Positions 32,912-62,421 of a DNA stretch of 64,000 nucleotides are shown here, in pieces. The stretch's first letter is position 1. Each line of letters begins with the position of its first letter. The DNA lies in contig CAZIWN010000002.1 of assembly GCA_964543265.1 (NCBI GenBank), forward strand, positions 29,554 through 93,553, written 5' to 3'. Both the position numbers and the translations under genes were made by a program. The DNA comes from an uncultured Candidatus Saccharibacteria bacterium. GTDB lineage: Bacteria; Patescibacteriota; Minisyncoccia; UBA6257; 1-14-0-10-40-38. The notes beneath the pieces are model-generated. The model saw nothing but the letters and a program-made list of their open reading frames with translations, was not told the DNA's origin and ran no database searches.

Positions 32912-36028
<3,117 letters not shown>

Positions 36029-36149
36029 ACATATATATTTCTCGTAACGGAAAATACATTATTTCCCGTTACTTAAAGTAATTTCACAAATGACTTGTTG
36101 TCTTTCATTCTACTTAAAAATGCTCTTTTGTACCTGTGTATTTCTACAC

Positions 36150-44456: not shown

Positions 44457-44458
44457 TC

Positions 44459-45592
44459 TTATAAATTAAATAGTCTCAAAATTTTATCAGAGTAATCATT
44501 CCAAGATACTTGATATTTTATACTTTCCAGGCTTTTTTGATAAGCCTTATAATTCCTTTCATTAGCTAGATATTCGAAAATATTTAAAAGCTCTAATTTA
44601 TTAAAAGGATCAAACGTTTTAGCTTTTCCCTCTAAAAAATATTGAAAACCAGTTTCTTCGGTGCAAATAAACGGAGTTCCAACAGAAAAAGAGTCTAAAA
44701 CAGAATTTGGTGTCATATCAGATAATGACGGTAAAACATAAAGATAAGATTTATAAAGCTCTCTTAAAAAATCTGCCCTTAAAAGAGCTGGTCCAATAAC
44801 TATTCCAGCATTAATTCCGCCCAATCCCCTAACCCTATCTTCCAAATCTTTCCTATAAGGACCATCTCCTAAAATTTTTAATTTAAATTCTTTATGATCT
44901 TTTCTAAATTCTAAAAATACATCTATTAAAAAATCTAGATTTTTTAATCTCATTATTCTTCCAGCATATATAATCGTTTTTTCTCTATCTTTATAATTCA
45001 ATTCACTTTCTAATTCATTTTTACTTTCGTAAGGATTTTCTATAATTGAAATGCTTTTTTCATTTATGGAATAATTTTTAACAAAAACACTCTTTTGAAG
45101 CTCTCCGGAAAAAACAATCTTATATGCCCTGACCAATGAAAAGTTTATTAGATATTTAATAATTTTCTCCTTTAGAGATAAATTAGATTCATAATATTTC
45201 TTAAACATTCCAAAATAGGCGCCAGACTCAACAGCTTTCTCCCATAAAAAATCACCACCATTTCTAATAATTAATCTCTTTCTTAAAAATAAATTAGCCA
45301 AAACAGATGGAAATGCTGCTGAAAAATTATCTAAAACTAAAATAGCATCACATTTTTTACCAAGCCTAAGACAAGCAAAAAGATAATTTAGATGCCTAAA
45401 TTTAGATTTTCTAGAAATCCTAAAAACCTCAAACCCTTGCTCTAAAGAAGATTCAGAATTATCGGCGAAAGTTAAAACGGAAACTTTAACACCCCTCTCT
45501 AAAGACCAAATCTTGGCCAATCTTCTTGCGTATTCACCAGATCCGCCCAATTCTGGTGGATAAATTCCGGTGGCTATCAAAATTGATTTCAT
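44459..45592 (-). CDS. glycosyltransferase family 1
   Basis: N-terminal ILIATGIYPPELGGSGEY and C-terminal GT-B nucleotide-binding half. Confidence 0.7.
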   Translation of the reverse strand: MKSILIATGIYPPELGGSGEYARRLAKIWSLERGVKVSVLTFADNSESSLEQGFEVFRISRKSKFRHLNYLFACLRLGKKCDAILVLDNFSAAFPSVLANLFLRKRLIIRNGGDFLWEKAVESGAYFGMFKKYYESNLSLKEKIIKYLINFSLVRAYKIVFSGELQKSVFVKNYSINEKSISIIENPYESKNELESELNYKDREKTIIYAGRIMRLKNLDFLIDVFLEFRKDHKEFKLKILGDGPYRKDLEDRVRGLGGINAGIVIGPALLRADFLRELYKSYLYVLPSLSDMTPNSVLDSFSVGTPFICTEETGFQYFLEGKAKTFDPFNKLELLNIFEYLANERNYKAYQKSLESIKYQVSWNDYSDKILRLFNL

Positions 45593-45593
45593 A

Positions 45594-47774
45594 TTATTGC
45601 CTTAAAGTCGAAATAAAATCTTTCATTTCTTCTCTTAATATATTCCAATCATACTTACCCCATACAAATTTAAAAGCCTTCTTAGACAAATCATCTCTAA
45701 GCTCTTTATTGTTTAAAATTAAAATTATTTTATTAGCCAAATCATTTTCGTCTTCTATTTTCATCTCTAATCCATTTTCACCATCCCTTAAAAAATCCGC
45801 TATTCCTCCAACTCTTGGAGCTATTATTGGCAAACCAAGAGCCATAGCCTCCAAAAAAGAACTTCCCAACCCCTCAGATCTAGATGGCCTAATGAAAACA
45901 TATGCCTCTCTTAAAAAATCTGGAATTTTATCATATTCAACCTGCCCCTTAAATGAAACCAAATTAGAAATTCCCAAATCAAAAGCTAATTTTTTTAAAT
46001 TATCTTCTTCTGGACCACTACCCGCAATTTCTAAAACCGAATTAAATTTCTCCTTAGAATTTTTTGCTAAATCTCTAGCCTTGGCAAAAGCTTTTATTAA
46101 AATATCTATGCCATTTTTATTAACCAATCTAGAAGTTGTTACTATTCTTTTAGCACCAACAAAATTAATGGGCAAATCAAAATCTTTTTTAAAAACCTCG
46201 AAATCAACTCCATTAGGAATTATTTTAATTTCTGATTTAGCCCCATGTTTTTTAGCAAATTCTCCCAAATAAGAACTTATAACTTGAATTTTATCCGCCT
46301 TTTTGAAAATCATTTTCCATAAAGGATAAAATATACCCACCCTTCTTAATATGTGACTTTCGGAATCTCCCTCCTGTAAAGTTAAAATAAAAGGAATCTT
46401 TGGATGTCTCAATTTAAACAATAGCGCCGCAAATCCTCCATAAGAAGCCATCATTCCCCAAATAGCGTCGAATGGCTTTTTTTTATGCTCAATCTCGGCT
46501 CTTCTCCAGGCCCTAAAAACATAAAGTATTTTTTCGAAACGCCTACCATAATAATCTCCAGATCCTCCCCTACCAACGCGAATTATGCTCGCACCAGAGT
46601 TTTCATCTATTCCCTCCCATTCAGCATTAAATTTATTGGTAAAAATTTTAAATCCAAAAGGCATTCTCTTTATAAATTCTCTAAGAGCAATTTCAGCTCC
46701 ACCCTCAAAAGGAAAATATGCCAAAGAAAAGACTGCAATATTAGAATTGTCCGCAAAAATCTTTCTTGTTACTGAAGAAGAAAACTCGGTTATTTTTTCC
46801 TCTTCCAAACCGACTAACCAATCCTGATTTTTCAAAAACCAATCTATAAATATTTTAACTCCATCCTCAATTTTAACTTTTGGCTTAAATCCAAAATCCT
46901 TATTTGCCCTCGAAGTATCGGCGATGGTAGCCGGAACATCTCCAGACTGAATCGGCATCAATTTCACCTTAGCTTTAATTCCTAGATTTTTTTCAATTAA
47001 ATGAACAAATTTTTTAAGAGACGTTGAGTCTGGCCCTCCAAGATTATAAATCTTACATCCCCTTATATCTTTTTTAATTATTCCCATTATTCCATCAACA
47101 ATGTCGCTTACGTAAGTGAAATTTCTCGTCATCTCTCCATTATTAAAAAGCATTATCTCTTTTCCCTGAATAATGTTTTTAGCAAACTTAAACAAAGCTA
47201 AGTCTGGCCTTCCATATTCTCCATAAACCGTAAAAAATCTTAAGCCGACAGTATCCATTCCCGACAAGTTATGATAAGAATATGCCAAGAGTTCATTAGC
47301 TCTTTTAGAAACTGCATACATAGACATCGGACTGCTAACGTCCTGACTCTCAGAAAAAGGCATTTCTTTATTGGCTCCGTAAACGGAACTAGAAGAAGCG
47401 TATAAAACTTTTTTAATACCCAAAGCCCTAGCTCCCTCGAAGATATTTAATGTGCCAATATAATTAGACTCTGCATAAGCCCAAGGATTTATTAATGAAT
47501 ATCTAACACCCGCCTGAGCAGCTAAATGAATTATTAAATCTGGTTTTTCTTTAGAGAAAATATCCTTAAGTTTTTCATAATCAACAATGTTTGTTTTATA
47601 AAATTTAAACTTTGGAAATTTACCTAAAATATTATTTCTGGCATATTTCATCCTCACATCGTAATAGTCTGTTATACAATCAATTCCAACCACACTCCAC
47701 CCCTCAGACAACATCCTCTTAGCAAGATGAAAACCTATAAATCCAGAAGTTCCGGTAATGAGCGCTTTTTTCAT
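45594..47774 (-). CDS. bifunctional fusion: NAD-dependent epimerase/dehydratase (UDP-sugar 4-epimerase-like SDR) plus C-terminal GT1 glycosyltransferase
   Basis: N-terminal Rossmann ITGTSGFIGFHLAKRML, catalytic SSSSVYG...YAVSK (YxxxK). C-terminal ~370 aa has SEGLGSSFLEAMALGLPIIAPRVGGIADFL, the GT1 motif. Confidence 0.8.
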   Translation of the reverse strand: MKKALITGTSGFIGFHLAKRMLSEGWSVVGIDCITDYYDVRMKYARNNILGKFPKFKFYKTNIVDYEKLKDIFSKEKPDLIIHLAAQAGVRYSLINPWAYAESNYIGTLNIFEGARALGIKKVLYASSSSVYGANKEMPFSESQDVSSPMSMYAVSKRANELLAYSYHNLSGMDTVGLRFFTVYGEYGRPDLALFKFAKNIIQGKEIMLFNNGEMTRNFTYVSDIVDGIMGIIKKDIRGCKIYNLGGPDSTSLKKFVHLIEKNLGIKAKVKLMPIQSGDVPATIADTSRANKDFGFKPKVKIEDGVKIFIDWFLKNQDWLVGLEEEKITEFSSSVTRKIFADNSNIAVFSLAYFPFEGGAEIALREFIKRMPFGFKIFTNKFNAEWEGIDENSGASIIRVGRGGSGDYYGRRFEKILYVFRAWRRAEIEHKKKPFDAIWGMMASYGGFAALLFKLRHPKIPFILTLQEGDSESHILRRVGIFYPLWKMIFKKADKIQVISSYLGEFAKKHGAKSEIKIIPNGVDFEVFKKDFDLPINFVGAKRIVTTSRLVNKNGIDILIKAFAKARDLAKNSKEKFNSVLEIAGSGPEEDNLKKLAFDLGISNLVSFKGQVEYDKIPDFLREAYVFIRPSRSEGLGSSFLEAMALGLPIIAPRVGGIADFLRDGENGLEMKIEDENDLANKIILILNNKELRDDLSKKAFKFVWGKYDWNILREEMKDFISTLRQ

Positions 47775-47852
47775 AAAATCTATATAATATAGCTATCTTT
47801 CTTTAATTAAAACCTTTCCTTGAAATCTACAGTTTTATAACAATAATCTTAT

Positions 47853-49007
47853 ATGAAAAGTCATAAAACTAAAATCCTCTATATAATAACCAAATCTGAC
47901 GTAGGCGGAGCTCAAAAATACGTGACCGACCTCTCAAATAATATTAATCCTGATATTTTTGAATCAAAAATAATTTATGGCGGACAGGATATAAAATCTC
48001 TATCCAACAAAACAAATCCTGGCTTATTTTTTTGGAATGATTGGAAGGCTATTTTTGAAATAGTAAAAATCTTAAGAAAAGAGTCTCCAGACATTATTCA
48101 TCTTAATAGCTCTAAAGCAGGAGTTTTAGGATCTCTCGCTGGACTGATTTATAAAAAAACCACTAATCAAAAATTAAAAATTATTTTTACTGCTCATGGT
48201 TGGATATTTAATCCTCAAAATAAGATTTCAAAATTAGAACATTTTTCCTACATAGCCCTCCATAAAATCTCTAGTCTTTTTCAAGACATAGTTATTAATG
48301 TCTCAAATTACGATAAAGAAATCGCTCTAAAATTTAACATAGCCAATCCTAAAAAATTAAAAGTAGTTTGGAATGGAATATACGAAAATATTAATTTTTT
48401 AAAGAGAGATGAGGCTAGAACGTTATTGCTTAAAAAAATACAAAACCAATCCCCAATCAAAATCACTCCAACAGAATTTCAAAACTCCAACATGGTAGGA
48501 TCAATCGGCAGACTAGTTAAAGAAAAAGATTATGAAACCCTAATCAAAGCTGCAAAACTAACAAATGAATCTATTTTTATAATTATTGGCGACGGATACG
48601 AAAAAGAAAAATTAGAAAATTTAATCAGATATTTTTCCTTAGAAAACAAATTTTTTCTTATCAAAAATGAAGGTAATGATGCTAGGTTTTTAAAAGCCTT
48701 TGATGCCTTTATTTTATCTTCTGTAAAAGAAGGTCTCCCCTACACATTAATAGAGGCGATGTCTTCTATGGTTCCAGTTATAGGAACTAAAACTGGCGGC
48801 ATAACAGAAATAATTAAATCTCAAAATTCAGAAAATGGAATCCTGGTAAATGTTAAAAATCCTCAAGAAATTACCCAGGCCATCGAAAATCTGAGAACCA
48901 ATCAAAATTTAAGAGAAAAGTTAACTAAGAATGCTTATAGCTTTTTTAAGAATCATTTAACTCTTAAGAACATGGTTCAGAGTACAGAAAAAATCTATCT
49001 AGAATAA
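47853..49007 (+). CDS. glycosyltransferase family 1
   Basis: 384 aa. DVGGAQKYV N-terminus. C-terminal KEGLPYTLIEAMSSMVPVIGTKTGGITEII. Confidence 0.75.
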   Translation: MKSHKTKILYIITKSDVGGAQKYVTDLSNNINPDIFESKIIYGGQDIKSLSNKTNPGLFFWNDWKAIFEIVKILRKESPDIIHLNSSKAGVLGSLAGLIYKKTTNQKLKIIFTAHGWIFNPQNKISKLEHFSYIALHKISSLFQDIVINVSNYDKEIALKFNIANPKKLKVVWNGIYENINFLKRDEARTLLLKKIQNQSPIKITPTEFQNSNMVGSIGRLVKEKDYETLIKAAKLTNESIFIIIGDGYEKEKLENLIRYFSLENKFFLIKNEGNDARFLKAFDAFILSSVKEGLPYTLIEAMSSMVPVIGTKTGGITEIIKSQNSENGILVNVKNPQEITQAIENLRTNQNLREKLTKNAYSFFKNHLTLKNMVQSTEKIYLE

Positions 49008-49029
49008 TAATATAGCATTAATAATAGAC

Positions 49030-49070
49030 AAAAAACAAAAAGCCCCGCTTTCGCGGGGACTTTTTGTTTT
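49030..49070. terminator. bidirectional rho-independent terminator between the convergent GT gene and the surface-protein gene
   Basis: aaaaAGCCCCGCtttcGCGGGGACtttttgtttt. Confidence 0.75.
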
Positions 49071-49094
49071 GAACATAACCTCTCTAACAAGCGA

Positions 49095-52000
49095 CTATTC
49101 GAATGAAACAGTGCTTGTGATTGGGATAATTCTGTCTTCGAGATATAAGGTCTCAGAAGCTGAATTTCCTTGAGATGACCATGTCAAAGCGGAGCTGCTT
49201 CCTAACTGCCATGACAAGCTGTCAGAAGTATTGGCAACGTTAGCAAATGCAGTCGAATCAACTCTCAACTTGAACACTTTGGATGTTCCTTGTGTTACAA
49301 GATAAGGAGTTGGAAGAGTCATTCCTAATCCAGTTGTTGTCGCATTTGTTGCGCTGGTGGTAGAAGTGATTGTGCTTCCTGTATCGCTGTCTACAAGTGA
49401 TAATGTTATGCCAGTTGCTCCAGATCCTAGGGCTGCACCAGAGAACTTGATTTGGAGAGTCTTTAACTCAACACCGTAATTTGCATCAGCGGTTATGGTT
49501 ATAGTTCCAATATCATCGTTCGCCTGTCTGGTTCTATTAGAAGTTGCTCCTAATGTTCCCAAGGCAGGGGTAAGCTTTGTTCTCAAAGCAGTTTGAATGT
49601 TTGAGGTCAAAGTCTGTGTGCTGCTAGAAGTTGTAGCAGTAACTTGCGTGTTCGAATCAACTCCGAAAGCTTTAATATCACCTCCTAATGTTGGAGTTGT
49701 ACTCGCAGAATTAATGGTGAATTGATAAAGCTTATTATGAGATGAGGTTGAATTCGTGAACGAAGCAACGTCTCCCTTCAAGGTATATGTCTTGGTTGTA
49801 TTCTTTGGAACAATCATAGAGCTTCCGAATGAAAAGTCAGAAGTATAATATGATGTCGAAGAAGCGACCAAAGAAGTTCCCGTTGGGCCAACTTGTGTAG
49901 CTCCGTCAAAGAATCTTAGATTGCTGAAAGTAGCAGGAGCTCCAGCAGATGTAGAAGCTGTAATTCTCAAGGTATCAAGTCTGATATCTTCATTATTATC
50001 AGCTGTAAATCTGAATTGAGCCAATGTTACACCATTTGATCCTAATACTATCTGTTGAGCAGATGGAGTAGAAGTATCAACTGTAGCAGTCAAAGTTCCA
50101 GCAGAAGCAACAACTATGTTTTGTCCATAGATTGGGTTAGATGAAGAAACAGCTGCACTGGTTGTTGCCAATGTCTGACTGCTTCTTGTAACAGCCCCAA
50201 CTCCAGTTGCTCCAGTGATTGATGTTGGAGCGCTGTATGTTGCAGCAGATGAACCGCTCAAAACATCTCCATAAACATCAAGGGTAATAGATGATCCGGC
50301 TGGGATCAAAGTTACGCCATTTGGTGATGTAAATGTGTATGCAGTAGAAGCGGCCAACGTTGGAACGTTATAGTTCCATTCTGTTGAACCATTCTTAACT
50401 CTCAAGTTTTGGACCTTCAATCCCGATGTAACATCCGAGGATGTTTTAACCGTGACATTGCTGACTTCAATTCCTTCAGCCGAAGAAGCTGAGAATGAGT
50501 ATGAACCCAATTTTCTCATTTGTCCTCCAGCTACATAGGTCTGAGCTCCAAATCCAGTGTTTTGTGAGGCCAAGAATGGAGAAGCAATGATTGTCAAAGC
50601 TGATCCATCCAATGTTCCTCCTGGAGCAGAAGCAGTCTGGAACGAAACTTGTCCTTCTATGTTAGATCCAGTAAATCCGGATGTTCCTGAAGGAGCAACT
50701 AATGATCCCTTAATAGAGCTAGAGGTTGCAGTTGTAGGAATTTCTACCTTCAAGCTCAACACTCTTGTAGTATTAGCTGGAATTATATAGTTGACGTTTG
50801 AAGAACTAGAACCAAATGAACAAATATAGGTTGCGCTCGTAGCTGCTGTTGCATATTCAGCAGTTCCATAAGTGCAAGATGATAATGTTCCAATTTCAGT
50901 TCCAACCTGTATTCCGTCATCTCCAACTAAACTTACGGCTCCAATTAAGCTGTCAATGTTTCCAGAGGAAACGCTAACTCCAGCAGTTGTGCTTGCTGTG
51001 AAGGTTAGTTTAAATGGTAACCATTTAATTCTAACGGCTTCTCCAGAAGCTCTAAGGTCAAATTTAGCCAAGGTAACATTTGTTGATCCCTTAGCAATAT
51101 TGCCTGTTGGGGTATTAACGTTTGTAGAAGCGGTTACTGTTCCAGCTCTTACTGTAACTTCCGTTGCAGAAGATGATGGTGTTCCACCGCTAATATTGGT
51201 GTTGTACTGTGTATCAGTTACAACCCAATCATATGGTCTCTGTAATTCAATCTTAACTGTTCTATTTGGAGTTCCAAGTACATCAAAGAATAAATCCATG
51301 ACGTGTGTTCCAGTTGTTAAGACTGGAGCGTTGGAAGCCATATCGAAAGTGATTTTTCCAGTAGCATCGGTGGATGCAGCTGTTCCAACAACTTTTCCAT
51401 CAATCATTAACTGGAAGTTTCTTGTATCGCTTCCTTTATTATTAGATCCAGTATCTCTCAAGGTTACATTACTGACCTTAATCGGGCTGTTTGAAACAGA
51501 GATTGTCCAAGCAGCTCCCCTGAATCCCATTGTTCCGGCATCAACAGTAGAAGCAACTCCTGTGTATGCAAAAGTTGCAACTGATGCTAATGATGGATTG
51601 GAAACGCTGGTAGTTACGAAGTTACCTCCATTGATTGGGAAGCTTCCTCCGACAGATCCAGTTGAAAGAGTGATATCAGATGCATTGGCCAAAGTGAACG
51701 ACAACGTATTACCGTTAGAAGCTCCTGTGGACATATCCATTCTGAGCCAAACATCAACAGTCTGACCTGCTGGGACTTCAAACAAATTTCCAGAGAAATT
51801 TACCATTCCTCCAGACAAGCTGTTGTACTGAGCAGCAATTGAACTGCCTACAGACAAATAAGCATTGGTAATGTTTGAATCTGAAACTACACCAGTCTTT
51901 AAGAATTTAGCTCCTGTGACCCAAACGTTTTGGTTTGTGCCGTTAGAAACTTTAAAGTTTAAAACTGGAATTTGAGCTGCGCCAGAAATAACTGATCCTC

Positions 52001-52490
52001 CAACATTAGATCCAGGGACGATAGTTACTTGTCCAGTAACAACTGGGGTAACTGTTGTTCCTCCGTTTCCTGTTGATGGAGTATATACAGCCATTGAAGC
52101 ATAAGCAGCTCTTGATTTAGATCCGAAATATCCTACAGCTGGGCTGATTCCGGAAGCAGATTGCCAAGCGGCAACTGCAGCTTTAGTCAAAGAACCGAAA
52201 TATCCCGTTGCGGAATAATTCAAGTGTCCTTTTGCTCTCAAGACATTCTGTAAGCAAGTAACATCATCTCCCTTAGCACCAACGGTGAGGTCGCGGGTGA
52301 AAGTGCAAGAAGCTGCTGTTGAAACAGAGGATCCTGATTGTAAAGCTACAAGCTGGGCTTGTAATTGGGCGATTTGCTGCAACAAAGCACTGATATCAGT
52401 TGTTTGAGCAGAAACCGATCCAACCAATACTGATCCAGAAAGCCACAAAACTGTCGCTAACACTAACATTCTAGAAAATATTTTACTCAT
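49095..52490 (-). CDS. large secreted Ser/Thr/Gly/Ala-rich cell-surface protein with N-terminal coiled-coil and a peptidoglycan-binding domain (S-layer/sheath-like candidate)
   Basis: 1131 aa. Signal peptide MSKIFSRMLVLATVLWLSGSVLVGSVSA|Q, then LLQQIAQLQAQLVALQ coiled-coil, then a PG_binding_1-like block DLTVGAKGDDVTCLQNVLRAKGHLNYSATGYFGSLTKAAVAAWQSASGI. The remaining ~950 aa are beta-rich and extremely rich in T/S/G/A/V/N with almost no charged residues. Confidence 0.75.
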   Translation of the reverse strand: MSKIFSRMLVLATVLWLSGSVLVGSVSAQTTDISALLQQIAQLQAQLVALQSGSSVSTAASCTFTRDLTVGAKGDDVTCLQNVLRAKGHLNYSATGYFGSLTKAAVAAWQSASGISPAVGYFGSKSRAAYASMAVYTPSTGNGGTTVTPVVTGQVTIVPGSNVGGSVISGAAQIPVLNFKVSNGTNQNVWVTGAKFLKTGVVSDSNITNAYLSVGSSIAAQYNSLSGGMVNFSGNLFEVPAGQTVDVWLRMDMSTGASNGNTLSFTLANASDITLSTGSVGGSFPINGGNFVTTSVSNPSLASVATFAYTGVASTVDAGTMGFRGAAWTISVSNSPIKVSNVTLRDTGSNNKGSDTRNFQLMIDGKVVGTAASTDATGKITFDMASNAPVLTTGTHVMDLFFDVLGTPNRTVKIELQRPYDWVVTDTQYNTNISGGTPSSSATEVTVRAGTVTASTNVNTPTGNIAKGSTNVTLAKFDLRASGEAVRIKWLPFKLTFTASTTAGVSVSSGNIDSLIGAVSLVGDDGIQVGTEIGTLSSCTYGTAEYATAATSATYICSFGSSSSNVNYIIPANTTRVLSLKVEIPTTATSSSIKGSLVAPSGTSGFTGSNIEGQVSFQTASAPGGTLDGSALTIIASPFLASQNTGFGAQTYVAGGQMRKLGSYSFSASSAEGIEVSNVTVKTSSDVTSGLKVQNLRVKNGSTEWNYNVPTLAASTAYTFTSPNGVTLIPAGSSITLDVYGDVLSGSSAATYSAPTSITGATGVGAVTRSSQTLATTSAAVSSSNPIYGQNIVVASAGTLTATVDTSTPSAQQIVLGSNGVTLAQFRFTADNNEDIRLDTLRITASTSAGAPATFSNLRFFDGATQVGPTGTSLVASSTSYYTSDFSFGSSMIVPKNTTKTYTLKGDVASFTNSTSSHNKLYQFTINSASTTPTLGGDIKAFGVDSNTQVTATTSSSTQTLTSNIQTALRTKLTPALGTLGATSNRTRQANDDIGTITITADANYGVELKTLQIKFSGAALGSGATGITLSLVDSDTGSTITSTTSATNATTTGLGMTLPTPYLVTQGTSKVFKLRVDSTAFANVANTSDSLSWQLGSSSALTWSSQGNSASETLYLEDRIIPITSTVSFE

Positions 52491-52643
52491 GTATGTGACT
52501 TAAAAAAAATTATTGATTTTATTTTATAATTACTAACTTTTAGGATGACTCTTGTGATGCTCGACCAAAAAGTCTTCCATTTTCAGGAAAAGCCGGTAAC
52601 GTCAGAGACCGACCAAGGGCTCTTAACGCCAAGCTTCTTTTAA

Positions 52644-52676
52644 CAAAAAAATCTCGCTCTTTGTGTGAAGCGAGAC
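52644..52676 (-). terminator. rho-independent terminator inside the 470-bp intergenic region upstream of the surface-protein gene
   Basis: On the minus strand GTCTCGCTtcacacaaagAGCGAGAT followed by ttttttt. Confidence 0.55.
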
Positions 52677-52766
52677 TGCGAGAAAAAAACAACAAGCCCC
52701 TTAGGGTATGAATATACCGCAAAAAGCCTGTAAAATAACGTTCCTCGCCTAGCCTCACACTAAGCA
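52644..52766 (-). ncRNA. candidate small transcript (~120 nt) bounded by a near-consensus promoter and an intrinsic terminator; identity unknown (sRNA or attenuated 5' leader)
   Basis: Promoter TTGAAA-N17-TATAAT at 52773..52801 (minus), terminator at 52644..52676. The interval has no credible ORF. The track ORF 52540..52767 reads through the terminator and is probably spurious. Confidence 0.3.
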
Positions 52767-52772
52767 AAACAT

Positions 52773-52801
52773 ATTATATCAGGTACCCCGATATATTTCA
52801 A
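52773..52801 (-). promoter_or_regulatory. sigma-70-type promoter, TTGAAA-17 nt-TATAAT
   Basis: Minus-strand TTGAAAtatatcggggtacctgaTATAATatg. Both hexamers match consensus with ideal spacing. Confidence 0.4.
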
Positions 52802-52962
52802 ATGTACAATCAATCCCTTAATCTGTGGACAATCTGTGCATAATGCTTATTTATTCAATAAACAAACGATATTAACAGTTGCCTTAAATATACAACGACT
52901 ATACGGTTCAAGTATTACGAACCCACAAAAACGAGCCACTTATAACAAATCAATATATTCCC

Positions 52963-53625
52963 CTATATATTTCTAACCCTATAAAAACTAGCCGGACCAG
53001 AACCAACTCTTTCAAGGCGACCCTCGGCACATGCCCTAGTTAAATCATATCTCAAAGTTCTTTCGCTAATATTTGGAAAGAGAGTGATTAAATCCTTTAA
53101 TTGAGCCGGCTTATCCATTTGCCTTATTTTATCTATTATAGAGGTTTGCCTTATTGCCGTATTGTCATTTGCCGCATTAAAACCATTATTAGAATCTAAT
53201 TGTTCATTAGCGGATAAATTTAAGGATTCGGCAATAACATCGCTCTTTGCCTTATTATTAGTTTTATTATCCTTCTTAAAGTTTGCCGTATTTTTATGAA
53301 TTTGATCATTGAGACCAAGATAATTACCATCAGAACTTAAACCGGTAACCATTCCCCTAGAAACATCATCCAATAAAGAAGATAATTCCTTTTTAACTAT
53401 TAACGCGTTTAATGGCTCTATTTCATAGATTATTTTACCGAAATCAACCAATCCAATAGCTAAATTAATAGACTCTATAACCTCTTCTCTCTTATTTAAG
53501 ATAACCCTTTCTAGCAAATCTAAAGACAATCTCTCTAATCTAGCCCTAAAATCATGCCTCCTTGAAGATACGGCAATTTGTATAAGTGCCAAGCTTATTT
53601 TTTTAACCCTCTCTTGTAGCTCCAT
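52963..53625 (-). CDS. hypothetical protein with an N-terminal helical bundle and a C-terminal winged-helix DNA-binding-like domain
   Basis: 220 aa. The C-terminus ISERTLRYDLTRACAEGRLERVGSGPASFYRV looks like a wHTH recognition helix plus wing. A central Asn-rich low-complexity segment separates the domains. Confidence 0.45.
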   Translation of the reverse strand: MELQERVKKISLALIQIAVSSRRHDFRARLERLSLDLLERVILNKREEVIESINLAIGLVDFGKIIYEIEPLNALIVKKELSSLLDDVSRGMVTGLSSDGNYLGLNDQIHKNTANFKKDNKTNNKAKSDVIAESLNLSANEQLDSNNGFNAANDNTAIRQTSIIDKIRQMDKPAQLKDLITLFPNISERTLRYDLTRACAEGRLERVGSGPASFYRVRNI

Positions 53626-53681
53626 TTGCCTTATATTCTATAAAAAATAAGGCAATTAAATCAAGTCTCGTAATAATATTT

Positions 53682-54275
53682 TTAAAGTAAAAGCAATGCC
53701 AACACAAAAGCTGCTAAAGCGAAAAAAGATATAGTCACACCCCTAACATCAACTCTTTCCCTAAAAACCAAAAAGAAGCTAGAAATAATAGTTACTAAGC
53801 TCAAAAAATAAGCCACAGATTCTCCGCTAGAAAAAATTAACCTAGAAATGAAAAACGACTCTGAAACTATAAGAGCTAAAACAGAAGACTTCAAAAAGCT
53901 ATTTTTCAAAGGGGCCAATCCCCCATCTTCACCGTAACTAACACTCATAGACCCAACAAACAAAAACATTACAAATAAAAATAATAAAGGTAATAAAAAA
54001 ATCATCTCTATGCCTCTAAATGAATTAAATTCAAAAAAAGCATAGAAAAATATGAAATTAGCCAAAACATAGTTCCACTCCCTTTTTCTCACAAAATAAT
54101 TATTTCTTAAACCTAAAGATATAAAGAAAACCACAGAGGCAGAAAATGAGGATATTAAAAAGTCTAAGCCACTAAAATTAAAAGCTGAAAAAAAACTCAA
54201 TATTAAAGAATATAGAAAAGGAAAAAAGAATTGAAAAAATCTCTTAGATTCAAAGCCATACAAAGCAAAACCCAT
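53682..54275 (-). CDS. polytopic membrane protein of unknown function (start uncertain)
   Basis: The track ORF runs to 54407 and would overlap the clpB 3' end by 53 nt. The internal Met at ~54275 (MGFALYGF...) avoids the overlap. Very Phe/Leu-rich, at least 6 TM. Confidence 0.4.
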   Translation of the reverse strand: MGFALYGFESKRFFQFFFPFLYSLILSFFSAFNFSGLDFLISSFSASVVFFISLGLRNNYFVRKREWNYVLANFIFFYAFFEFNSFRGIEMIFLLPLLFLFVMFLFVGSMSVSYGEDGGLAPLKNSFLKSSVLALIVSESFFISRLIFSSGESVAYFLSLVTIISSFFLVFRERVDVRGVTISFFALAAFVLALLLL

Positions 54276-54354
54276 TAAAACAATCAAAAATTGAAGGAAA
54301 AAAGACCCTCCGCTTAAATGAAGTAAAAATATGGATAGAAAAAATATCAGAGAC

Positions 54355-57000
54355 CTAACGACTAATTGAAATAGCCGAGCCTGAGTAAGAGATTTTAAGT
54401 TTGTCACCGTTTTTTATTTCACCCTTTAACATTTTGTCCGACAATTGGTTTAATATTGTTTTTTCAACAAATCTTTTAATAGGCCTTGCTCCATAGTCTG
54501 GATCAAAACCATTATCAACTAGATATTTTTTTGTATTGGCATCAAAAGCAACCTTTATATTCTTAGCCTCTAGCTTTTTTCTGACTATCTCCAACTGCAA
54601 ATCAACGATCTTTTCTATAACAGACCTACTTAAAGGATTAAATATAATTATTTCATCTAATCTATTTAAAAATTCTGGCCTGAAATTATCTTTTAATTCA
54701 GCAGATACCTTATTTTTAAAGTCGGATTCCTTTTCAGATCTATCTTTTTCAGCATTATTACCACTCCCCTCAAATCCAATCTTAGATATTTCTCTAAAGT
54801 AAAAACTACCGACATTAGATGTCATTATTATTATAGTGTTTTTAAAATTTACAGTTTTTCCCTTTGAATCAGTCAACCTTCCGTTATCTAAAACTTGTAG
54901 CAATAAATTCAAAACCTCTGGATGAGCTTTTTCAATTTCATCGAACAATATCAAATTATATGGCCTATGCCTTATAGCTTCGGTAAGTTGTCCACCATCT
55001 TCATGTCCGACATAGCCAGGAGGAGATCCAACCAAGCGAGAAACCGAATGCTTCTCCATATATTCCGACATATCAACCCTAATCATGGCCCTTTCATCAT
55101 TAAACATAAATTCAGCCAAAGCCCTGGCTAATTCAGTTTTTCCAACTCCAGTCGGACCAAGAAAGATAAAAGATCCCATCGGCCTATTTTCATCAGACAA
55201 TCCAGCCCTAGAACGCCTAAGAGCGCTAGATATTGATTTTATAGCATCATCCTGGCCAATAACTCTAGAACCTAAAACTTCTTCTATCTTTGATAATTTC
55301 TGAGATTCTGTTTCAAGCATCCTAGAAACCGGTATTCCAGTCCAACGACTTACAACTCCAGCAACATCCTCCTCATCAACCATCTCTTTTATAAAACTCT
55401 TGTCCTCGTTCTTTTTCTTAGATGTTTTTTTGCTAAAATTTTTCTTTTCGTAAGCCTGATACTCTTTTTCCGCCTGAGGTAAATTTCCATAGAGTATTTC
55501 AGCTACTTTTTCCAAATTTCCAGATCTTTCCGCAACTTCAGCCTCTCTTTTAAGATTTTCTATTCTCCTTCTTAAGTTATGTAAATTTTCAAAAATCATT
55601 TTCTCTGCATGCCAAGAAGCCGATAGCTCGTCATTTCTATCTTTTAATCCAGATATTAATTTTTCTATTTCTTTAACTCTTTCCTTGCCGGAAGATTCTT
55701 TAGATAGTGCCGATTTTTCTATCTCCAGCCTAGTGACTTCTTTTCTTACCTTCTCTATCTCTGAAGGCAAACTTTCAGACTCTAATTTTCTTGCAGCCGC
55801 TGCTTCATCTATTAAATCCACTGCTTTATCTGGTAAAAATCTATCCGTTATATATCTAGAAGATAAATTTACAGCGGAAATCAAGGCTTCATCGCTAATT
55901 CTAAGCCCATGGTGTATTTCATATTTTTCTTTCAATCCCCTCAAAATCGAAACCGCGTCTTCATAACTTGGCTCGTCAACTACTATTGGCTGAAATCTTC
56001 TCTCTAGTGCTGGATCTTTTTCTATATGTCTTTGATATTCTCTAGTGGTTGTTGCTCCAATTGCATGAAGCTCTCCCCTAGCAAGTGGCGGTTTTAATAA
56101 ATTTGAAGCATCAAGCGCTCCCTCGGCTGCTCCAGCCCCCACAATCATATGAATCTCATCTATAAATAAAATAAGTCTTCCTTGAGAATTTTGTATCTCT
56201 TTTATAAAAGCCTTTAATCTATCCTCAAATTCTCCTCTAAATTTAGTTCCGGCTATCAAGCTTCCTAAATCAAGCATAATAATCTCTTTATTTTTAAGAG
56301 TTTCTGGAACATTTCCTTCGATGATTCTTTGCGCCAATCCTTCAACTATAGCTGTTTTACCAACCCCAGGCTCTCCTATTAAGACTGGATTATTTTTTGT
56401 TCTTCTTGAAAGAACCTGTATCAATCTTCTCAATTCCTCCTCCCTGCCTATTACCGGATCAAGCTTACCCTGCTTAGCTCTTTCGGTTAAATTTATGGCA
56501 TATTTTTCCAAAACTTGAAATTTTGCCTCCGGAGTTTCGTCCGTTATCCTCATGGAACCTCTAAGTTGAGCCAAAATTCTTAGTACCTGCTCTCTTTTTA
56601 AAGAAAATTCCTCTAAAACAGTTTTTGCCTGAGATGGAGTTTCTAATATTGCCAATAATAAATGTTCGCAAGAAATAAACTCATCCTTTTGAGAAGCTGC
56701 AACCTTAGCCGCCTTATCTAAAACCTGCATCAACTCTTGAGAAAGATAAAGCTGCCCGATAGATGATGCGGCAAATATTTTTGGAAGCTTTAAAAGCTCA
56801 TCTTCAATCACCTTATATAAGGAATCGATATTAACTCCAGCTTTAACTAAAACAGGTTTAACTAAAGATTGTTCATCCGAAATCAAGCTTAATAGAAGAT
56901 GTAGCGCCTTAAACTCTCCATGATTTCTTTGTGCGGCTAAATCCTGTGCATTTTGAAGAGCTTCTTGCGCTTTTATTGTAAATTTATTGAAATTTCTCAT
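54355..57000 (-). CDS. clpB: ATP-dependent chaperone ClpB
   Basis: 881 aa. Clp N-domain repeats, NBD1 GEPGVGKTAIVEGLAQRI, long middle coiled-coil, NBD2 GPTGVGKTELARALAEF, sensor-2 GARPIKR. Confidence 0.92.
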   Translation of the reverse strand: MRNFNKFTIKAQEALQNAQDLAAQRNHGEFKALHLLLSLISDEQSLVKPVLVKAGVNIDSLYKVIEDELLKLPKIFAASSIGQLYLSQELMQVLDKAAKVAASQKDEFISCEHLLLAILETPSQAKTVLEEFSLKREQVLRILAQLRGSMRITDETPEAKFQVLEKYAINLTERAKQGKLDPVIGREEELRRLIQVLSRRTKNNPVLIGEPGVGKTAIVEGLAQRIIEGNVPETLKNKEIIMLDLGSLIAGTKFRGEFEDRLKAFIKEIQNSQGRLILFIDEIHMIVGAGAAEGALDASNLLKPPLARGELHAIGATTTREYQRHIEKDPALERRFQPIVVDEPSYEDAVSILRGLKEKYEIHHGLRISDEALISAVNLSSRYITDRFLPDKAVDLIDEAAAARKLESESLPSEIEKVRKEVTRLEIEKSALSKESSGKERVKEIEKLISGLKDRNDELSASWHAEKMIFENLHNLRRRIENLKREAEVAERSGNLEKVAEILYGNLPQAEKEYQAYEKKNFSKKTSKKKNEDKSFIKEMVDEEDVAGVVSRWTGIPVSRMLETESQKLSKIEEVLGSRVIGQDDAIKSISSALRRSRAGLSDENRPMGSFIFLGPTGVGKTELARALAEFMFNDERAMIRVDMSEYMEKHSVSRLVGSPPGYVGHEDGGQLTEAIRHRPYNLILFDEIEKAHPEVLNLLLQVLDNGRLTDSKGKTVNFKNTIIIMTSNVGSFYFREISKIGFEGSGNNAEKDRSEKESDFKNKVSAELKDNFRPEFLNRLDEIIIFNPLSRSVIEKIVDLQLEIVRKKLEAKNIKVAFDANTKKYLVDNGFDPDYGARPIKRFVEKTILNQLSDKMLKGEIKNGDKLKISYSGSAISISR

Positions 57001-57075
57001 TTTTATATATGAGCTAATTATCGGCGATTAGCACTCCAAAGTCAAGATTGCTAATAATCAATATTCACATACCTA

Positions 57076-57110
57076 AAATAAAAAAATCCCCGCACACAAT
57101 GCGAGGATTT
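57076..57110 (-). terminator. rho-independent terminator of hppA
   Basis: Minus strand aaaaaATCCTCGCattgtgtGCGGGGATttttttat (one C.A mismatch in the stem). Confidence 0.55.
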
Positions 57111-57130
57111 TTTAATTTTCAAGTTATAAC

Positions 57131-57236
57131 TTTAAATTTAAAACGGGCAGATACGAGGCGTTTCGAGGAAGTTGCATCAGAGCCATGCGGATACTACGAC
57201 GAGAAACAACAAAGTAGCTGACGTTTTAAATTTAAA
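57131..57236 (-). repeat. 15-bp perfect inverted repeat (TTTAAATTTAAAACG ... CGTTTTAAATTTAAA) enclosing a 76-bp GC-rich core, located in the hppA 3' UTR and overlapping its stop codon
   Basis: Arms at 57131..57145 and 57222..57236. The core ggcagatacgaggcgtttcgaggaagttgcatcagagccatgcggatactacgacgagaaacaacaaagtagctga is far more GC-rich than the flanks. Confidence 0.5.
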
Positions 57237-59199
57237 GAATGAAGGGAATAATTAGAAGGGCTACTATATTGATAACCTTTATTAAAGGATTGATTGCAGG
57301 TCCAGCCGTATCCTTATAAGGATCTCCCACAGTATCTCCTGTTACAGCCGCTTTATGCCAATCAGTTCCCTTTCCGCCCTGGCTCTCAATATATTTTTTA
57401 GCATTGTCCCAAGCAGCTCCACCGGTTGTCATAGAAATCCCGAGGAATAATCCCGAAACCATGCTTCCGATCAAGAATCCCGCTAAAGCTTCTGCGCCAA
57501 GCAAAAATCCAACCAACAAAACAAATATTATTGGAACAATAGCAGGCATCATCATCTTTTTTAATGCAGCCTTAGTCACGATATCAACAGCAGCTCCATA
57601 ATCTGGTTTTCCGGTCCCCTCCATTATTCCCTTTATTTCTCTAAATTGTCTCCTTACTTCTTCCACCACAGCCGAAGCAGCCAAACCAACCGCCTTCATG
57701 GCATATGAAGAAAATAAAAATGGAATAGTTCCCCCTAAAATGAGTCCGATTAAAACTTGTGGATTATCCAATCCTAAACCCAAATCAGGGATAGTCTTGT
57801 AAGCCTCAGCTGTATAAACAGAGAATAATGCTAAGGCACCCAATCCAGCAGAAGCTATTGCATAACCCTTTGTCACAGCTTTTGTAGTGTTTCCAACAGC
57901 ATCTAATGCGTCTGTAATTTTTCTAACTTCAGCTGGAGCTCCGGCCATTTCAGCAATTCCCCCAGCATTGTCAGTAATTGGTCCAAAAGAGTCTATTGCA
58001 ATAACCATTCCAGCCACAGACAACATCGAAACCGTAGCTATAGCAATTCCGATAAGACCATAAATCCAATAGCTGAAAAAGATTCCGGCTACAATCACTA
58101 AAATAGGTAAAAATACAGATTCCTGACTAACAGACAAACCCATAATCACGTTTGTTCCATGACCAGACTTTGAAGCTTCGGCAATAGATTTTACTGGTCT
58201 GAATTTTTTAGCTGTATAGTAATCTGTTATTAAAACCATAAGAACAGTTACGATGAGACCGACCACTGAACTCCAAAATATCATCATGCCTTCACCGCCA
58301 TCAAAATCTTTAAAAGCTAAATAAAAGAAAATTAAAGCAAATATTATTGTCGCCGCAAAACCTTTATAAAGGGCGCCCATTATATTTTCAGATTTTCCAA
58401 GCTTAACAAAGAAAGATCCTAAAATTGATGAAACTATTGCTAATCCGCCAATTATAAGAGGAACAAAAACTGCTGTTCCAACTCCACCGGTAACTGCAGC
58501 TATTAAAAGCATGGCCGCAGAAAGAGTGACTGCATAAGTTTCGAACAAGTCAGCCGCCATTCCAGCACAATCTCCAACATTATCTCCAACGTTATCAGCA
58601 ATAACGGCTGGATTCCTTGGATCATCTTCTGGAATATCCTTCTCAACCTTTCCAACCAAATCAGCTCCAACATCTGCCGCCTTGGTATAAATTCCCCCTC
58701 CTAATCTTGCGAATATCGAAATTAAACTAGCTCCAAATCCTAAACCTACCAACGCATTGATATCTTTTGTTATATAAACAAATCCCGCCACAGCTAGAAG
58801 TCCGAGTGCTACAACTAAAAATCCAGTCACAGATCCGGCCTTAAAAGCTAGAGAAAGAGCCGCCCCCATTCCCTTCTCAGCAGCCTTTGCGGTTTTTGAA
58901 TTAGATTTTACAGCCACCTTCATTCCGAGATATCCAGCTAAAGCAGATGCTCCTCCTCCAATTAAAAATCCTATAGCCATAACAGAACCCAAATATGCAT
59001 AAATCAAAACTCCCAAGACAATGGCTACGATTCCAATAGTTTTATATTGCCTCTTTAAATAAGCAGAAGATCCTTCCTGTATAGCCCTGGAAATTTCTTC
59101 CATCTTATCTGTTCCCTTTGGTTGCCTCTTTAACCAAAAGCTAATATATCCACTCCACAAAACAGCTATTATTATCGGTCCGAATATTAGATATTCCAT
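57232..59199 (-). CDS. hppA: membrane-bound proton-translocating pyrophosphatase (H+-PPase)
   Basis: 655 aa, ~15 TM. Conserved [61 protein letters not shown]. Confidence 0.9.
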
Positions 59200-59222
59200 A
59201 TTTTATTTATTTAATAATGTTT

Positions 59223-60446
59223 TTAATTAGAATCATTTTCCTCCGATTTTTCCTTATTTTCAAGCTCAGCCTCATTTGAAGCAGCATCTGGTTCTCCATT
59301 AGCCTGAACCTCTTCTGGTTTAGCCTCGCTTCTCACGTCTATCTTCCAGCCAGTTAGCTTTGCCGCCAAACGGACATTTTGCCCTCCGCGACCGATAGCT
59401 AAACTAAGCTCATTATCAGCTATTACCACCTTCGCTTCCCTGTTGGGGAGTATCTCTATAGATTTTGGTTTAGCTGGTGACAAAGCATTCATTATTAATT
59501 TCGAAGGATCCTCCGACCATTCAATAATATCAATTTTTTCTTGTCCTAATTCCGAAGAGACAGCCATAACTCTTGCTCCACGCTGACCAACGCAAGCGCC
59601 AACCGGATCAAGGGCTTCCGATTTTGAGTAAACCGCCATTTTTGTTCTACTTCCCTCTTCTCTAGCAATCGCCCTAATCTCAACAGTTCCATCATTAATT
59701 TCTGGAACTTCTAAAGCAAATAATTTACTAACAAATTTAGGATGACTTCTAGATAGTATTATTCCAGGACCTCTTCCATCGGTATTAATGGTTAACACTA
59801 AAAATTTAAATCTATCTCCCACATTATATCTTTCAAATCTAATACCTTCTCCAGGAAACATAACCCCTATTGCCCTCCCTAAATCGACATAAACATTTCC
59901 TCTTTCAATTCTTTGGATTGTTCCAGAAACAATTTCCCCCTCTCTATTTTTAAATTCAGAAGTTATAGATTCTCTTTCCGCGTCTCTGATTTTCTGTAAA
60001 ATAACTTGCTTTGCTGTTTGCGCAGCAATTCTTCCAAAGTCATCCATGGTTTCAAGAGGAAATTCCAATTCCTCACCCAATTCTACTGTTTTTTTAATCT
60101 TTTTAGCCTCATCTAAGAATATGTGCTTATCGGAATTATACTTAGGCAAAATTGTTCCATCTAATGGATCCGCATCAATCATTTCCTCTTCTCCTTCTTT
60201 CGGAATTCTAACAGTTGTTTCATCAACAACTATTTTAATTTGAGCAAATTTAAGATCGCCTGACTTTAAATCAAATTTTGCTTTAATAATTTCACCCTTC
60301 TTGTCGTATTCTTTTTTATAAGCAGCAGCAATAGACTGCTCTATAGCTTCTAATATTTTTTTAGCATCTATACCCTTCTCTTGAGCAAGTTGCTCAATCG
60401 CTCTCCTTAAATTTTTTAAATCTATCATCTTATTTTTTAAAACCAA
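59223..60446 (-). CDS. nusA: transcription termination/antitermination factor NusA (with acidic C-terminal tail)
   Basis: N-terminal RNAP-binding domain (ILEAIEQSIAAAYKKEY), S1 domain (GEIVSGTIQRIERGNVYVDLG), two KH domains (GACVGQRGARV; AIGRGGQNVRLAAKLTGWKIDV). Confidence 0.85.
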   Translation of the reverse strand: MVLKNKMIDLKNLRRAIEQLAQEKGIDAKKILEAIEQSIAAAYKKEYDKKGEIIKAKFDLKSGDLKFAQIKIVVDETTVRIPKEGEEEMIDADPLDGTILPKYNSDKHIFLDEAKKIKKTVELGEELEFPLETMDDFGRIAAQTAKQVILQKIRDAERESITSEFKNREGEIVSGTIQRIERGNVYVDLGRAIGVMFPGEGIRFERYNVGDRFKFLVLTINTDGRGPGIILSRSHPKFVSKLFALEVPEINDGTVEIRAIAREEGSRTKMAVYSKSEALDPVGACVGQRGARVMAVSSELGQEKIDIIEWSEDPSKLIMNALSPAKPKSIEILPNREAKVVIADNELSLAIGRGGQNVRLAAKLTGWKIDVRSEAKPEEVQANGEPDAASNEAELENKEKSEENDSN

Positions 60447-60593
60447 CTCTAATGATTTTAATTTTGTTTTTCTGAAGCCCCCGCAGTCTGTTTTGCTTGG
60501 ATTCCGCTTTAGCGGAAAAAAACTGACGAGGACTGAGTAAATTTTTCCGCAGGAGAAAAATTTACAGGCTAAAGAAAAACAAAATTAAAATTT

Positions 60594-60615
60594 TAGCCAC
60601 CTCGACGGGTGGCTA
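60594..60615 (-). terminator. hairpin downstream of recA (weak terminator candidate)
   Basis: TAGCCACCcgtcgaGGTGGCTA (minus), followed by an A/T-rich run but no clean T-tract. Confidence 0.35.
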
Positions 60616-60648
60616 AACAGCTTCAAACTTACTTCAATAATACCAATC

Positions 60649-61713: not shown

Positions 61714-61725
61714 ATTTATAATTAA

Positions 61726-62409: not shown

Positions 62410-62421
62410 GATAACCCTAGT

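Follow-up and report, generated by a model that had tools for sequence, protein, structure and literature searches.

A probable transcription attenuator with an invariant hexaloop in the leader of a parcubacterial surface-protein gene

Introduction

Parcubacteria/Paceibacteria form a huge, almost uncultured bacterial branch with tiny genomes, and to our knowledge very few regulatory RNAs are known from them. One candidate lies in a 64,000-nucleotide (nt) stretch of contig CAZIWN010000002.1 (positions 29,554 to 93,553), termed the window here, in which a 472-nt spacer (52491..52962, minus strand) separates two minus-strand genes. The downstream gene (49095..52490, minus strand; ATG at 52490) encodes a surface protein of 1131 amino acids (aa) with a signal-peptide-like N terminus and a PG_binding_1 domain (Pfam); it has hundreds of homologues of ~1100 aa, annotated as peptidoglycan-binding proteins of Parcubacteria/Paceibacterota. 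A sequence-only reading of the spacer had described a promoter and a terminator that delimit a transcription unit of ~120 nt, and had left two possibilities: a stand-alone small RNA (sRNA) or an attenuator or riboswitch-like leader of the surface-protein gene. Which of these, then, is the unit? The evidence described below points to the leader. Its first ~122 nt are probably a three-state transcription attenuator that allows read-through by default and is conserved across Parcubacteria/Paceibacteria. Coordinates that run from high to low denote the minus strand.

The loci of relatives came from three sources, namely exact-protein look-ups, a protein-profile scan restricted to one genome per species (80 loci), and a motif-first scan of metagenome contigs with the pattern GGTTCRGNGTGAGGCYGRACC (~37 bits; 88 loci). 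Leader statistics refer to 101 non-redundant leaders unless another denominator is given. The window clade consists of the window itself (L001, identical), L003, L083 and L085. Among the leader-bearing ~1100-aa PG_binding_1 surface proteins, ortholog identity is only 35-81%. The spacer before the gene measures 460-530 nt in all close relatives, and in alignments reaching down to 55% protein identity the promoter hexamers, the block GTGAGGCT, the terminator and some downstream blocks are kept against a variable background. When the leader was compared by blastn with the 80 relatives' loci, the sole match was a relative with 78% identity. The leader family emerged only from a 7-mer combined with structure.

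The promoter and the start of the transcript

The promoter of the leader consists of a -35 hexamer, TTGAAA (52801..52796), which is also present in the three other clade members, and an extended -10 element, TG-a-TATAAT (52781..52773, with TATAAT at 52778..52773), separated by a 17-nt spacer. It matches the consensus at 11 of 12 positions in addition to the extended -10 TG, and is the top-scoring site both in 51500..54000 and in the 20 kb from 44001 to 64000, in keeping with its earlier description as near-perfect. The consensus match by itself proves little, because the number of promoter-like sites in either interval does not exceed that of shuffled sequences. The feature is nonetheless judged real because promoter hexamers, 5ʹ hairpin and terminator all align in relatives whose surface proteins are 55-81% identical. 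Transcription would start near 52766, ~7 nt past TATAAT, which would give a terminated RNA of ~122 nt and so agrees with the unit length first proposed. In 43 of 100 leaders of the family, the 5ʹ hairpin, P1, begins 6-12 nt after the end of a -10-like hexamer, and -10-like sequences are ~9 times as dense just before P1 as in the rest of the leader. This clustering places P1 at the extreme 5ʹ end of the predicted transcript.

The interval holds one mechanically called open reading frame (ORF) of 75 codons with a TTG start (52540..52767, minus strand). It has no Pfam match and is stopped after 8-16 codons in the three closest relatives, so that no conserved ORF is present in the leader and the earlier statement that no ORF fills the interval holds in substance. 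Leader-peptide attenuation was rejected, given that this ORF is not conserved and that the leaders do not begin with AUG.

Two 9-mers resembling DnaA boxes, TTATGCACA and TTGTCCACA, lie just upstream of the -35 hexamer (52843..52835 and 52832..52824). In 22 of 71 loci, the sense strand carries such a 9-mer, mostly TTATCCACA, at 40-100 nt before GUGAGG, where ~0.003 per 160 nt would be expected by chance. They may tie expression of the surface protein to DnaA or the cell cycle, or may serve another factor.

A 5ʹ hairpin with an invariant loop

P1 (52765..52747) is the proposed anti-antiterminator and control point of the leader. Its 5ʹ arm GCUUAG (52765..52760) and 3ʹ arm CUAGGC (52752..52747) enclose the loop U-GUGAGG (52759..52753), and the form typical of the family is ggttcag-N-GUGAGG-cugaacc. 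The six loop bases GUGAGG are identical in all 101 leaders. In 68 distinct loci of relatives retrieved through protein similarity (35-81% identity), the orthologous gene is preceded at 150-630 nt by an exact GTGAGGC, where chance would supply ~0.04 per 700-nt locus. The arms, by comparison, covary between lineages (for instance uuugg/ccaaa, cuuag/cuaag and gucuug/caagau), and several leaders carry an extra hairpin between the P1 5ʹ arm and GUGAGG with the outer stem retained. For 52 sequences, the 7-bp stem is 88.7% paired, a percentage inflated by the choice of sequences with at least 4 adjacent pairs, and has 48 cells changed on both sides, a covariation that this choice does not inflate. 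None of 500 shuffles reached these values, and all slid registers collapse. Because the stem covaries with many G-U pairs, P1 must act as RNA on the minus strand.

A covariance model of this element (R1) has a single match in the 64-kb window, at 52770..52742 (27.3 bits, E 9e-7), the next best scoring 10.9 bits. In 1.09 Mb of relatives' loci, its matches lie just upstream of the surface-protein gene, save two weak ones. The comparison among relatives suggested by the sequence-only reading thus showed promoter, P1 and terminator to be conserved in the closer relatives, the P1 stem to covary, and the P1 motif to recur in more than 100 independent leaders. The invariance of GUGAGG may reflect a sequence-specific binder, or the need for one loop to fit two or three partner sites simultaneously.

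Rare variants of the 5ʹ element occur (L055:262-291, L058:1390-1419, L059:5687-5716, L023 and L074). One has GUGAGG-A-CUGAAC and a matching terminator arm, GCCCUCGC; in L023, GUGAGG is closed by a G-U pair and a hairpin is inserted; and in L074, GUGAGG directly follows TACAAT without an obvious stem. No variant of the six loop bases was seen in any leader, these rare forms included.

Two further roles for the loop were considered and set aside. Pairing with the anti-Shine-Dalgarno sequence of 16S rRNA would involve only GAGG:CCUC (4 bp). The loop might also be seen as a codon display for a tRNA anticodon loop, as CCUCAC and, in L083, UUUCAC resemble anticodon loops; nothing supports this idea.

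Terminators and the competing antiterminator

The terminator recognized earlier, T2, has a stem at 52677..52650 with an 8-nt loop and a U run extending to ~52645. Its arms GUCUCGCUU/GAGCGAGAU span 52676..52651 and are followed by U7 (52651..52645). Folded alone, the hairpin has an energy of -11.7 kcal/mol and is among the best terminators in 44001..64000. It begins 96 nt after the end of the -10 element, and its U tract ends 153 nt before the ATG, close to the ~90 and ~150 nt given before. A similar bidirectional terminator closes the surface-protein gene (49043..49058), indicating that the organism uses intrinsic terminators. A second terminator-like hairpin between promoter and T2, overlooked by the sequence-only reading, is T1 (52731..52692, followed by UG and U7 at 52689..52683), with 12+5 bp and -16.9 kcal/mol. 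T1 is kept within the clade, with compensatory changes at 7 pairs among the four members, and is clade-specific; other clades have different inserts, or none, in this variable segment.

T2 aligns with a family element, a GCCUCGC-loop-GCGAG hairpin with an immediate U5-8, that is present in 75 of 101 leaders; the terminator element as such was found in 75-83 of the 101 relatives. GCCUCGC is complementary to GUGAGGC of P1 with one G-U pair. The terminator stem of the family begins at CUCGC, and the bases before it (..UCAG) are dispensable for a terminator yet conserved (G in 76/86, A in 56/86, C in 57/86), mirroring the CUGA that follows GUGAGG. Beyond the 7-nt core, the antiterminator helix has 2.57 further pairs, compared with 2.27 +/- 0.08 when flanks are permuted among loci. 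For transcripts from P1 to the U run, the antiterminator is contained in the unconstrained minimum-energy fold of 74 of 83 leaders, and its median gain over the best fold in which the terminator is forced to form is 3.0 kcal/mol. Across the family, terminator hairpins are weak (median -7.3 kcal/mol). In the folding model, the layout is that of the classical 1:2 / 2:3 / 3:4 scheme, in which segment 2 would comprise the loop and the P1 3ʹ arm.

In the window, region 3 of this scheme is GUCUCGCUUCACAC (52676..52663). It starts with GUCUCGC (52676..52670), an instance of the family consensus GYCUCGC that is complementary to GUGAGGC, and its duplex has -19.6 kcal/mol. The T2 loop contributes CUUCACAC (52670..52663), which can form 8 bp with GUGUGAGG and does so in the window's minimum-energy fold; at the same position, L003 has UCUCAC and L083 UUUCAC. 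A lower antiterminator helix is predicted between the purine strand GGCGAGGA (52749..52742) and UUUUCUCGC (52686..52678). This helix is found in the minimum-energy fold and in the clade consensus fold (columns 20-27 with 83-92); it shows no double changes, and its support comes from fold prediction only. Folding of successive prefixes gives P1 first, then T1, and then, once the 5ʹ arm of T2 is present, a composite antiterminator in which GUGUGAGGC pairs with GC-U-UCACAC and GGCGAGGAA with UUUUCUCGC. The complete 127 nt have -46.2 kcal/mol in the antiterminator state, against -43.4 kcal/mol for P1 + T1 + T2, and the fold has z = -5.1 relative to shuffles. The near balance of antiterminator and terminator states is what would be expected of a switch.

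The leader beyond the terminator

An exact complement of the loop, CCUCAC, recurs between terminator and ATG in 52 of 68 loci, compared with 0-4 of 68 for control hexamers, and is found downstream in 83 of 101 leaders of the larger set. It sits in the loop of a later hairpin, P3, whose stems differ by lineage (caucg/cgaug, cuaau/auuag, gucgc/gcgau and ucugacc/gguuaga are examples) and whose mean contiguous stem is 6.0 bp, as opposed to 3.86 bp after shuffling. Since RNA structure downstream of the terminator is under selection, read-through must occur. That the P1 and P3 hexaloops are perfect complements displayed on covarying stems suggests a kissing contact in the full-length mRNA. The exact CCUCAC is absent from the four leaders of the window clade. 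At the position of P3, the window has CGUUAC, inside a helix, in a stem-loop domain GAAGCUUGGCG ... CGUUACCGGCUUUU (52637..52588) that aligns with P3 and has a few compensatory changes among the four sequences.

A second hairpin of the 5ʹ untranslated region (UTR), at 52578..52543, holds GGUCGA (52566..52561), the window copy of the family box AAAGGUCGAC, ~77 nt before the ATG. The box AAAGGUCGAC(G) is present in 76 of 101 leaders at about -77 from the ATG, and the box GGUCGAUA in 73 of 101 at about -44; these distances are fixed. A further (A)GUCGAAAA box lies nearer the start codon, and the window clearly retains only the first box, AAAGGUCGAC. GUCGAC can pair with GUCGAU, often with a covarying hairpin between them, which suggests an RNA helix. 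With its 1-nt centre, the sequence GGTCGACGACC has no room for the loop of an RNA hairpin and resembles a DNA operator.

The translation start region, AAGUCACAUAC plus AUG (52501..52488), is invariant in the four clade members and has no Shine-Dalgarno sequence. RNAalifold predicted that UCACA (52498..52494) could pair with the loop bases UGUGA in the window clade; this pairing of the P1 loop with AAGUCACAUAC near the AUG is unsupported, every position being invariant. A Shine-Dalgarno-like motif was found in none of the 101 leaders. Nor was one found in any of the 34 window ORFs of at least 200 codons, and for this reason the idea that its lack is special to the surface-protein gene was rejected. 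Many of the 34 genes have TATAAT 7-13 nt before the ATG, and the genome seems to make mostly leaderless mRNAs or mRNAs with very short leaders. In such a genome, with TATAAT so often near the ATG and genes without Shine-Dalgarno sequences, a structured leader of 276 nt is exceptional. Surface-protein homologues without the GUGAGG leader (L065, L073, L082; Azambacteria-like) carry AAGGAG before the ATG.

Gene specificity

The motif-first scan yielded 61 assessable loci among its 88. In 44 of the 61, a surface-protein homologue starts 160-690 nt downstream of the motif, and in L124 the homologue downstream is frameshifted, for a total of 45/61. Another 15 are matches inside long ORFs on contigs of 54-70% G+C, roughly the number estimated for chance. 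The last, L117 (Ga0315274_10000458, 11465..6962, minus strand), has a P1 hairpin and terminator before the gene of an unrelated secreted protein of 1471 aa, in which no Pfam domain was recognized and which does not resemble the PG_binding_1 protein; the terminator is GGCCUCG..CGAGG-U5, only 88 nt ahead of the gene. The module may thus be portable between surface-protein genes. Neither in the relatives' loci nor in the metagenome scan was the P1-terminator unit found unlinked from a gene for a large secreted protein, and it appears to belong almost exclusively to the surface-protein gene family. In three Paceibacteria, the five signal-peptide genes with the highest expression include ones for secreted proteins with a peptidoglycan-binding domain (PGBD; PMC10936435), which are likely orthologous to the family described here.

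Proposed mechanism

The leader has the parts of an attenuator: a promoter with an untranslated leader on the same strand, an intrinsic terminator within that leader, and a conserved competing pairing together with a third structure. The best reading of these parts is a switch among three states, anti-antiterminator, antiterminator and terminator, with the invariant loop as control point and a hypothetical trans factor. Transcription would start ~7 nt after TATAAT, and P1 would fold first and display its GUGAGG loop. The emerging 5ʹ arm of the terminator (GCCUCGC in the family, GUCUCGCUUCACAC in the window) could then pair with the exposed loop, and the pairing would zip into the P1 3ʹ arm and displace the 5ʹ arm, so that the antiterminator would use up the 5ʹ arm of the terminator. 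RNA polymerase would read through into the surface-protein gene by default, a default expected from the greater stability of the antiterminator fold and the weakness of the terminator hairpin. If the P1 loop were occupied or P1 stabilized, the terminator would form and an RNA of ~120 nt would be released. The occupying agent, in a logic of the PyrR type, could be a hypothetical RNA-binding protein or an RNA bearing CCUCAC. In most relatives, the P1 and P3 loops would probably kiss in the finished mRNA and close the 5ʹ UTR; the window clade seems to have relocated this partner to the loop of the terminator (CUUCACAC). The best-supported reading is an attenuator that is either factor-dependent or purely kinetic.

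A bolder proposal, rather doubtful at present, is that one hexaloop is used twice, as a toehold that overrides the terminator during transcription and later as the kissing partner of the CCUCAC loop in the same mRNA. If this were true, contact in trans by accumulated mRNA, or an RNA-binding protein specific to the candidate phyla radiation (CPR), could occupy nascent loops and force termination. The result would be a feedback that meters the most abundant envelope protein of the cell, in organisms nearly without 5ʹ UTRs or Shine-Dalgarno sites.

Weighing the alternatives

Several points weigh against the attenuator. One concerns the promoter: in the last 40 nt before the ATG, -10-like hexamers rich in A and T accumulate across the leaders (AATAAT, 52514..52509, in the window), and a proximal second promoter could supply most of the surface-protein mRNA. 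Start site, termination efficiency and read-through are all deduced from sequence, and a default-on attenuator is an incomplete mechanism on the signal side. As GUGAGG never varies, the pairings of the loop are beyond covariation testing, and its invariance could equally reflect recognition by a protein, with the complementarities secondary. The window clade, moreover, departs from the family plan: its GUCUCGC would form two G-U pairs, its terminators are two in tandem, and the CCUCAC hairpin is missing. T1, with its own U7, is not obviously overridden by the same antiterminator. When the canonical register is enforced, the fold is slightly worse than P1 + T2 (-42.2 versus -43.4 kcal/mol in L001 and -38.4 versus -40.0 kcal/mol in L003), and the favourable antiterminator of the window relies on the clade-specific CUUCACAC.

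The strongest rival, though an unlikely one, is an architectural or stabilizing 5ʹ UTR without regulated termination, in which P1 would protect the RNA, the P1/P3 contact would compact the leader, and the apparent terminator would be a structural hairpin or pause that is always read through. P1 starts within a few nt of the predicted transcript start, an expression-boosting leader is plausible in a genome otherwise with very short or no leaders, and with the antiterminator favoured in most leaders, termination could be negligible. The protein family is probably also among the most expressed secreted proteins of three Paceibacteria (PMC10936435), and S-layer transcripts of lactobacilli owe half-lives of 14-15 min to long structured 5ʹ UTRs (PMC3666127). 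However, a structural hairpin would need neither the conserved U5-8 right after its stem nor a 5ʹ flank complementary to the P1 3ʹ arm, and near-balanced energies resemble a switch. A stabilizing role could well be an added function of the attenuator and not its replacement. The sRNA, the other half of the original alternative, is improbable. It would act in trans, its GUGAGG loop targeting the CCUCAC hairpin of a neighbouring mRNA made from its own promoter. The unit does have its own strong promoter and terminator, a perfect loop target lies in the adjacent leader in 83 of 101 cases, and -10-like sequences lie near the ATG. These lie downstream of P3, however, and transcripts starting there would therefore lack the target, and no promoter-like cluster is found between the terminator and the CCUCAC hairpin. 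The presence of that covarying, loop-complementary hairpin beyond the terminator in most relatives implies that transcription continues past it. A terminator arm complementary to the functional loop of the same RNA would harm an sRNA and not help it, the unit is never unlinked from a large secreted-protein gene in the loci examined, and the window clade is without the target. The terminated ~120-nt by-product might still have a function of its own.

Still less probable is a metabolite or ion riboswitch with its aptamer between P1 and the terminator. The helix enclosing such a domain competes with the terminator, and the fold is more stable than shuffles (z = -5.1), yet the segment inside that helix is anywhere between ~25 and 145 nt long and has no sequence or structure common to the clades, the sole invariant bases are those of the hexaloop and its partners, and neither the window nor two typical leaders gave an Rfam riboswitch match at E <= 10. 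The attenuator half of the earlier leader proposal is thus upheld by conserved complementarity, by the folds of 74 of 83 leaders and by gene specificity, whereas its riboswitch half is unsupported, for want of a conserved core or an Rfam match. Regulation at the DNA level, with GTGAGG/CCTCAC as one double-stranded site bound by a factor such as a DeoR-like protein and the RNA structures incidental, is the least credible of all. The two hexamers are reverse complements, a DeoR-type winged helix-turn-helix gene lies directly upstream in 60 of 73 loci, and the DnaA-box-like 9-mers, apparent DNA sites, flank the promoter. Against this, the centre of P1 is invariant and its flanking inverted repeat covaries, the reverse of what a dimeric operator would show, and its frequent G-U pairs would be mismatched in the complementary strand. 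The stems of P3 covary too, the sites are only 6 bp long, and a third copy (CCUCGC) lies inside a canonical terminator hairpin with a U run.

Neighbouring genes and other features of the window

The gene upstream of the spacer (52963..53625, minus strand) encodes a protein of 220 aa; its relatives have ~220-240 aa (for example L003:4888-5551). These proteins begin with a helical domain, which a low-complexity linker joins to a DeoR-like winged helix at the C terminus, with PF08220 above its cutoff in relatives. The gene is syntenic, on the same strand and directly upstream in 60 of 73 Parcubacteria loci, and its product is a candidate regulator of the surface-protein promoter. Other syntenic genes encode ClpB (52 loci) and a 241-aa polytopic membrane protein (48 loci; 53682..54407 in the window). 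A strong terminator-like hairpin, AAAAAAUCCUCGCAUUGUGUGCGGGGAUUUUUU (57113..57081), lies between a gene ending at 57232 and clpB (start 57000); the CCUCGC that it shares with the leader terminator is probably a coincidence of G+C-rich stems.

Elsewhere in the window, the match to 23S rRNA (32912..36031, minus strand) has 3120 nt compared with the 2925 nt of the model, which suggests that the gene carries an insertion. The 5S gene follows it (32668..32783, minus strand), and no adjacent 16S gene is present within the window. In CPR bacteria, rRNA genes are commonly unlinked, and insertions in them are common too.

Significance

The type of mechanism, a leader with terminator and antiterminator, is already known; what appears to be new, no Rfam family and no paper in the literature searched having been found for it, is the family itself, its restriction to the CPR and the double use of one invariant loop. 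Conservation is deep, in that the hexaloop remains 100% identical while the protein falls to ~35% identity. The leader is tied to a wall-bound surface protein that may mediate attachment to the host, and could lead to the regulator that governs envelope synthesis in these episymbionts. It provides a defined, testable putative RNA switch, whose minimal module measures 62-68 nt in some species, adds an RNA family to genome annotation, and would be a clean natural example of a loop-initiated strand-displacement antiterminator.

Comparison with known systems

A search of the whole window with Rfam 15 at gathering thresholds found only 23S and 5S rRNA and two tRNAs, with no match in the leader. The earlier failure to match the unit by eye to SRP, tmRNA, RNase P, 6S or common riboswitches is therefore borne out. 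At E <= 10, a search of 52400..53000 and of L040 and L033, typical leaders of two distant relatives, returned only noise, such as ncr982 (24.8 bits, cutoff 50) and Trp_leader (12.8 bits, cutoff 41). The literature searched for the motif and for structured RNAs of the CPR held nothing relevant.

Long leaders with a 5ʹ-end hairpin before the gene of an abundant envelope protein are also known from S-layer genes, where they act as stabilizers (for example, the Lactobacillus slpA leader). Similar stabilizers include the STAB-SD of B. thuringiensis cryIIIA and the aprE leader of B. subtilis. Unlike the leader described here, all these stabilizers are not known to have an internal intrinsic terminator or an invariant loop with conserved complementary sites, and they share no sequence similarity with it. 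The lambda nut/boxB (N) system and NusG paralogues of the LoaP type likewise feature a small promoter-proximal hairpin with a specific loop upstream of terminators, and here too terminators precede a long gene for a surface component. However, these systems modify RNA polymerase processively and need no complementarity between hairpin and terminator, which is the most conserved feature of the present leader, and no boxA-like element is present among the most conserved leader 7-mers. ANTAR targets consist of two tandem small hexaloop hairpins (A at position 1, G at position 4), the second of which overlaps the terminator. An ANTAR-target leader was rejected, as the family has only one conserved hairpin, a 7-nt loop and a variable spacer before the terminator.

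In T-box leaders, as proposed here, an RNA-RNA contact of a displayed loop picks terminator or antiterminator. In the present leader, however, the partner of the loop lies in the same RNA and is not a tRNA, and the gene is not one for an aminoacyl-tRNA synthetase or amino-acid metabolism. There is, moreover, no T-box sequence, no Stem I feature and no match to RF00230, so that this assignment was rejected.

The switch logic appears closest to that of the PyrR-controlled pyr attenuators of Bacillus (RF00515), from which the RNA itself stands apart. These likewise have three mutually exclusive structures (a 5ʹ anti-antiterminator hairpin, an antiterminator and an intrinsic terminator), no leader peptide and the antiterminator as default. 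The PyrR anti-antiterminator has a conserved purine-rich loop, CAGAGAGGCU, to which CAG-W-GUGAGG-CUG corresponds in the present leader. Despite the likeness of CAGAGAGGCU to CAGWGUGAGGCU, a PyrR site was rejected, given the lack of an RF00515 match at E <= 10 and the wrong gene context. Loop size and sequence differ, and the downstream gene encodes a surface protein and is not one for pyrimidine biosynthesis or transport. Moreover, and unlike the PyrR site, the present loop has partners within the RNA as well, namely the terminator arm and the CCUCAC hairpin, and the protein that would bind it is hypothetical.

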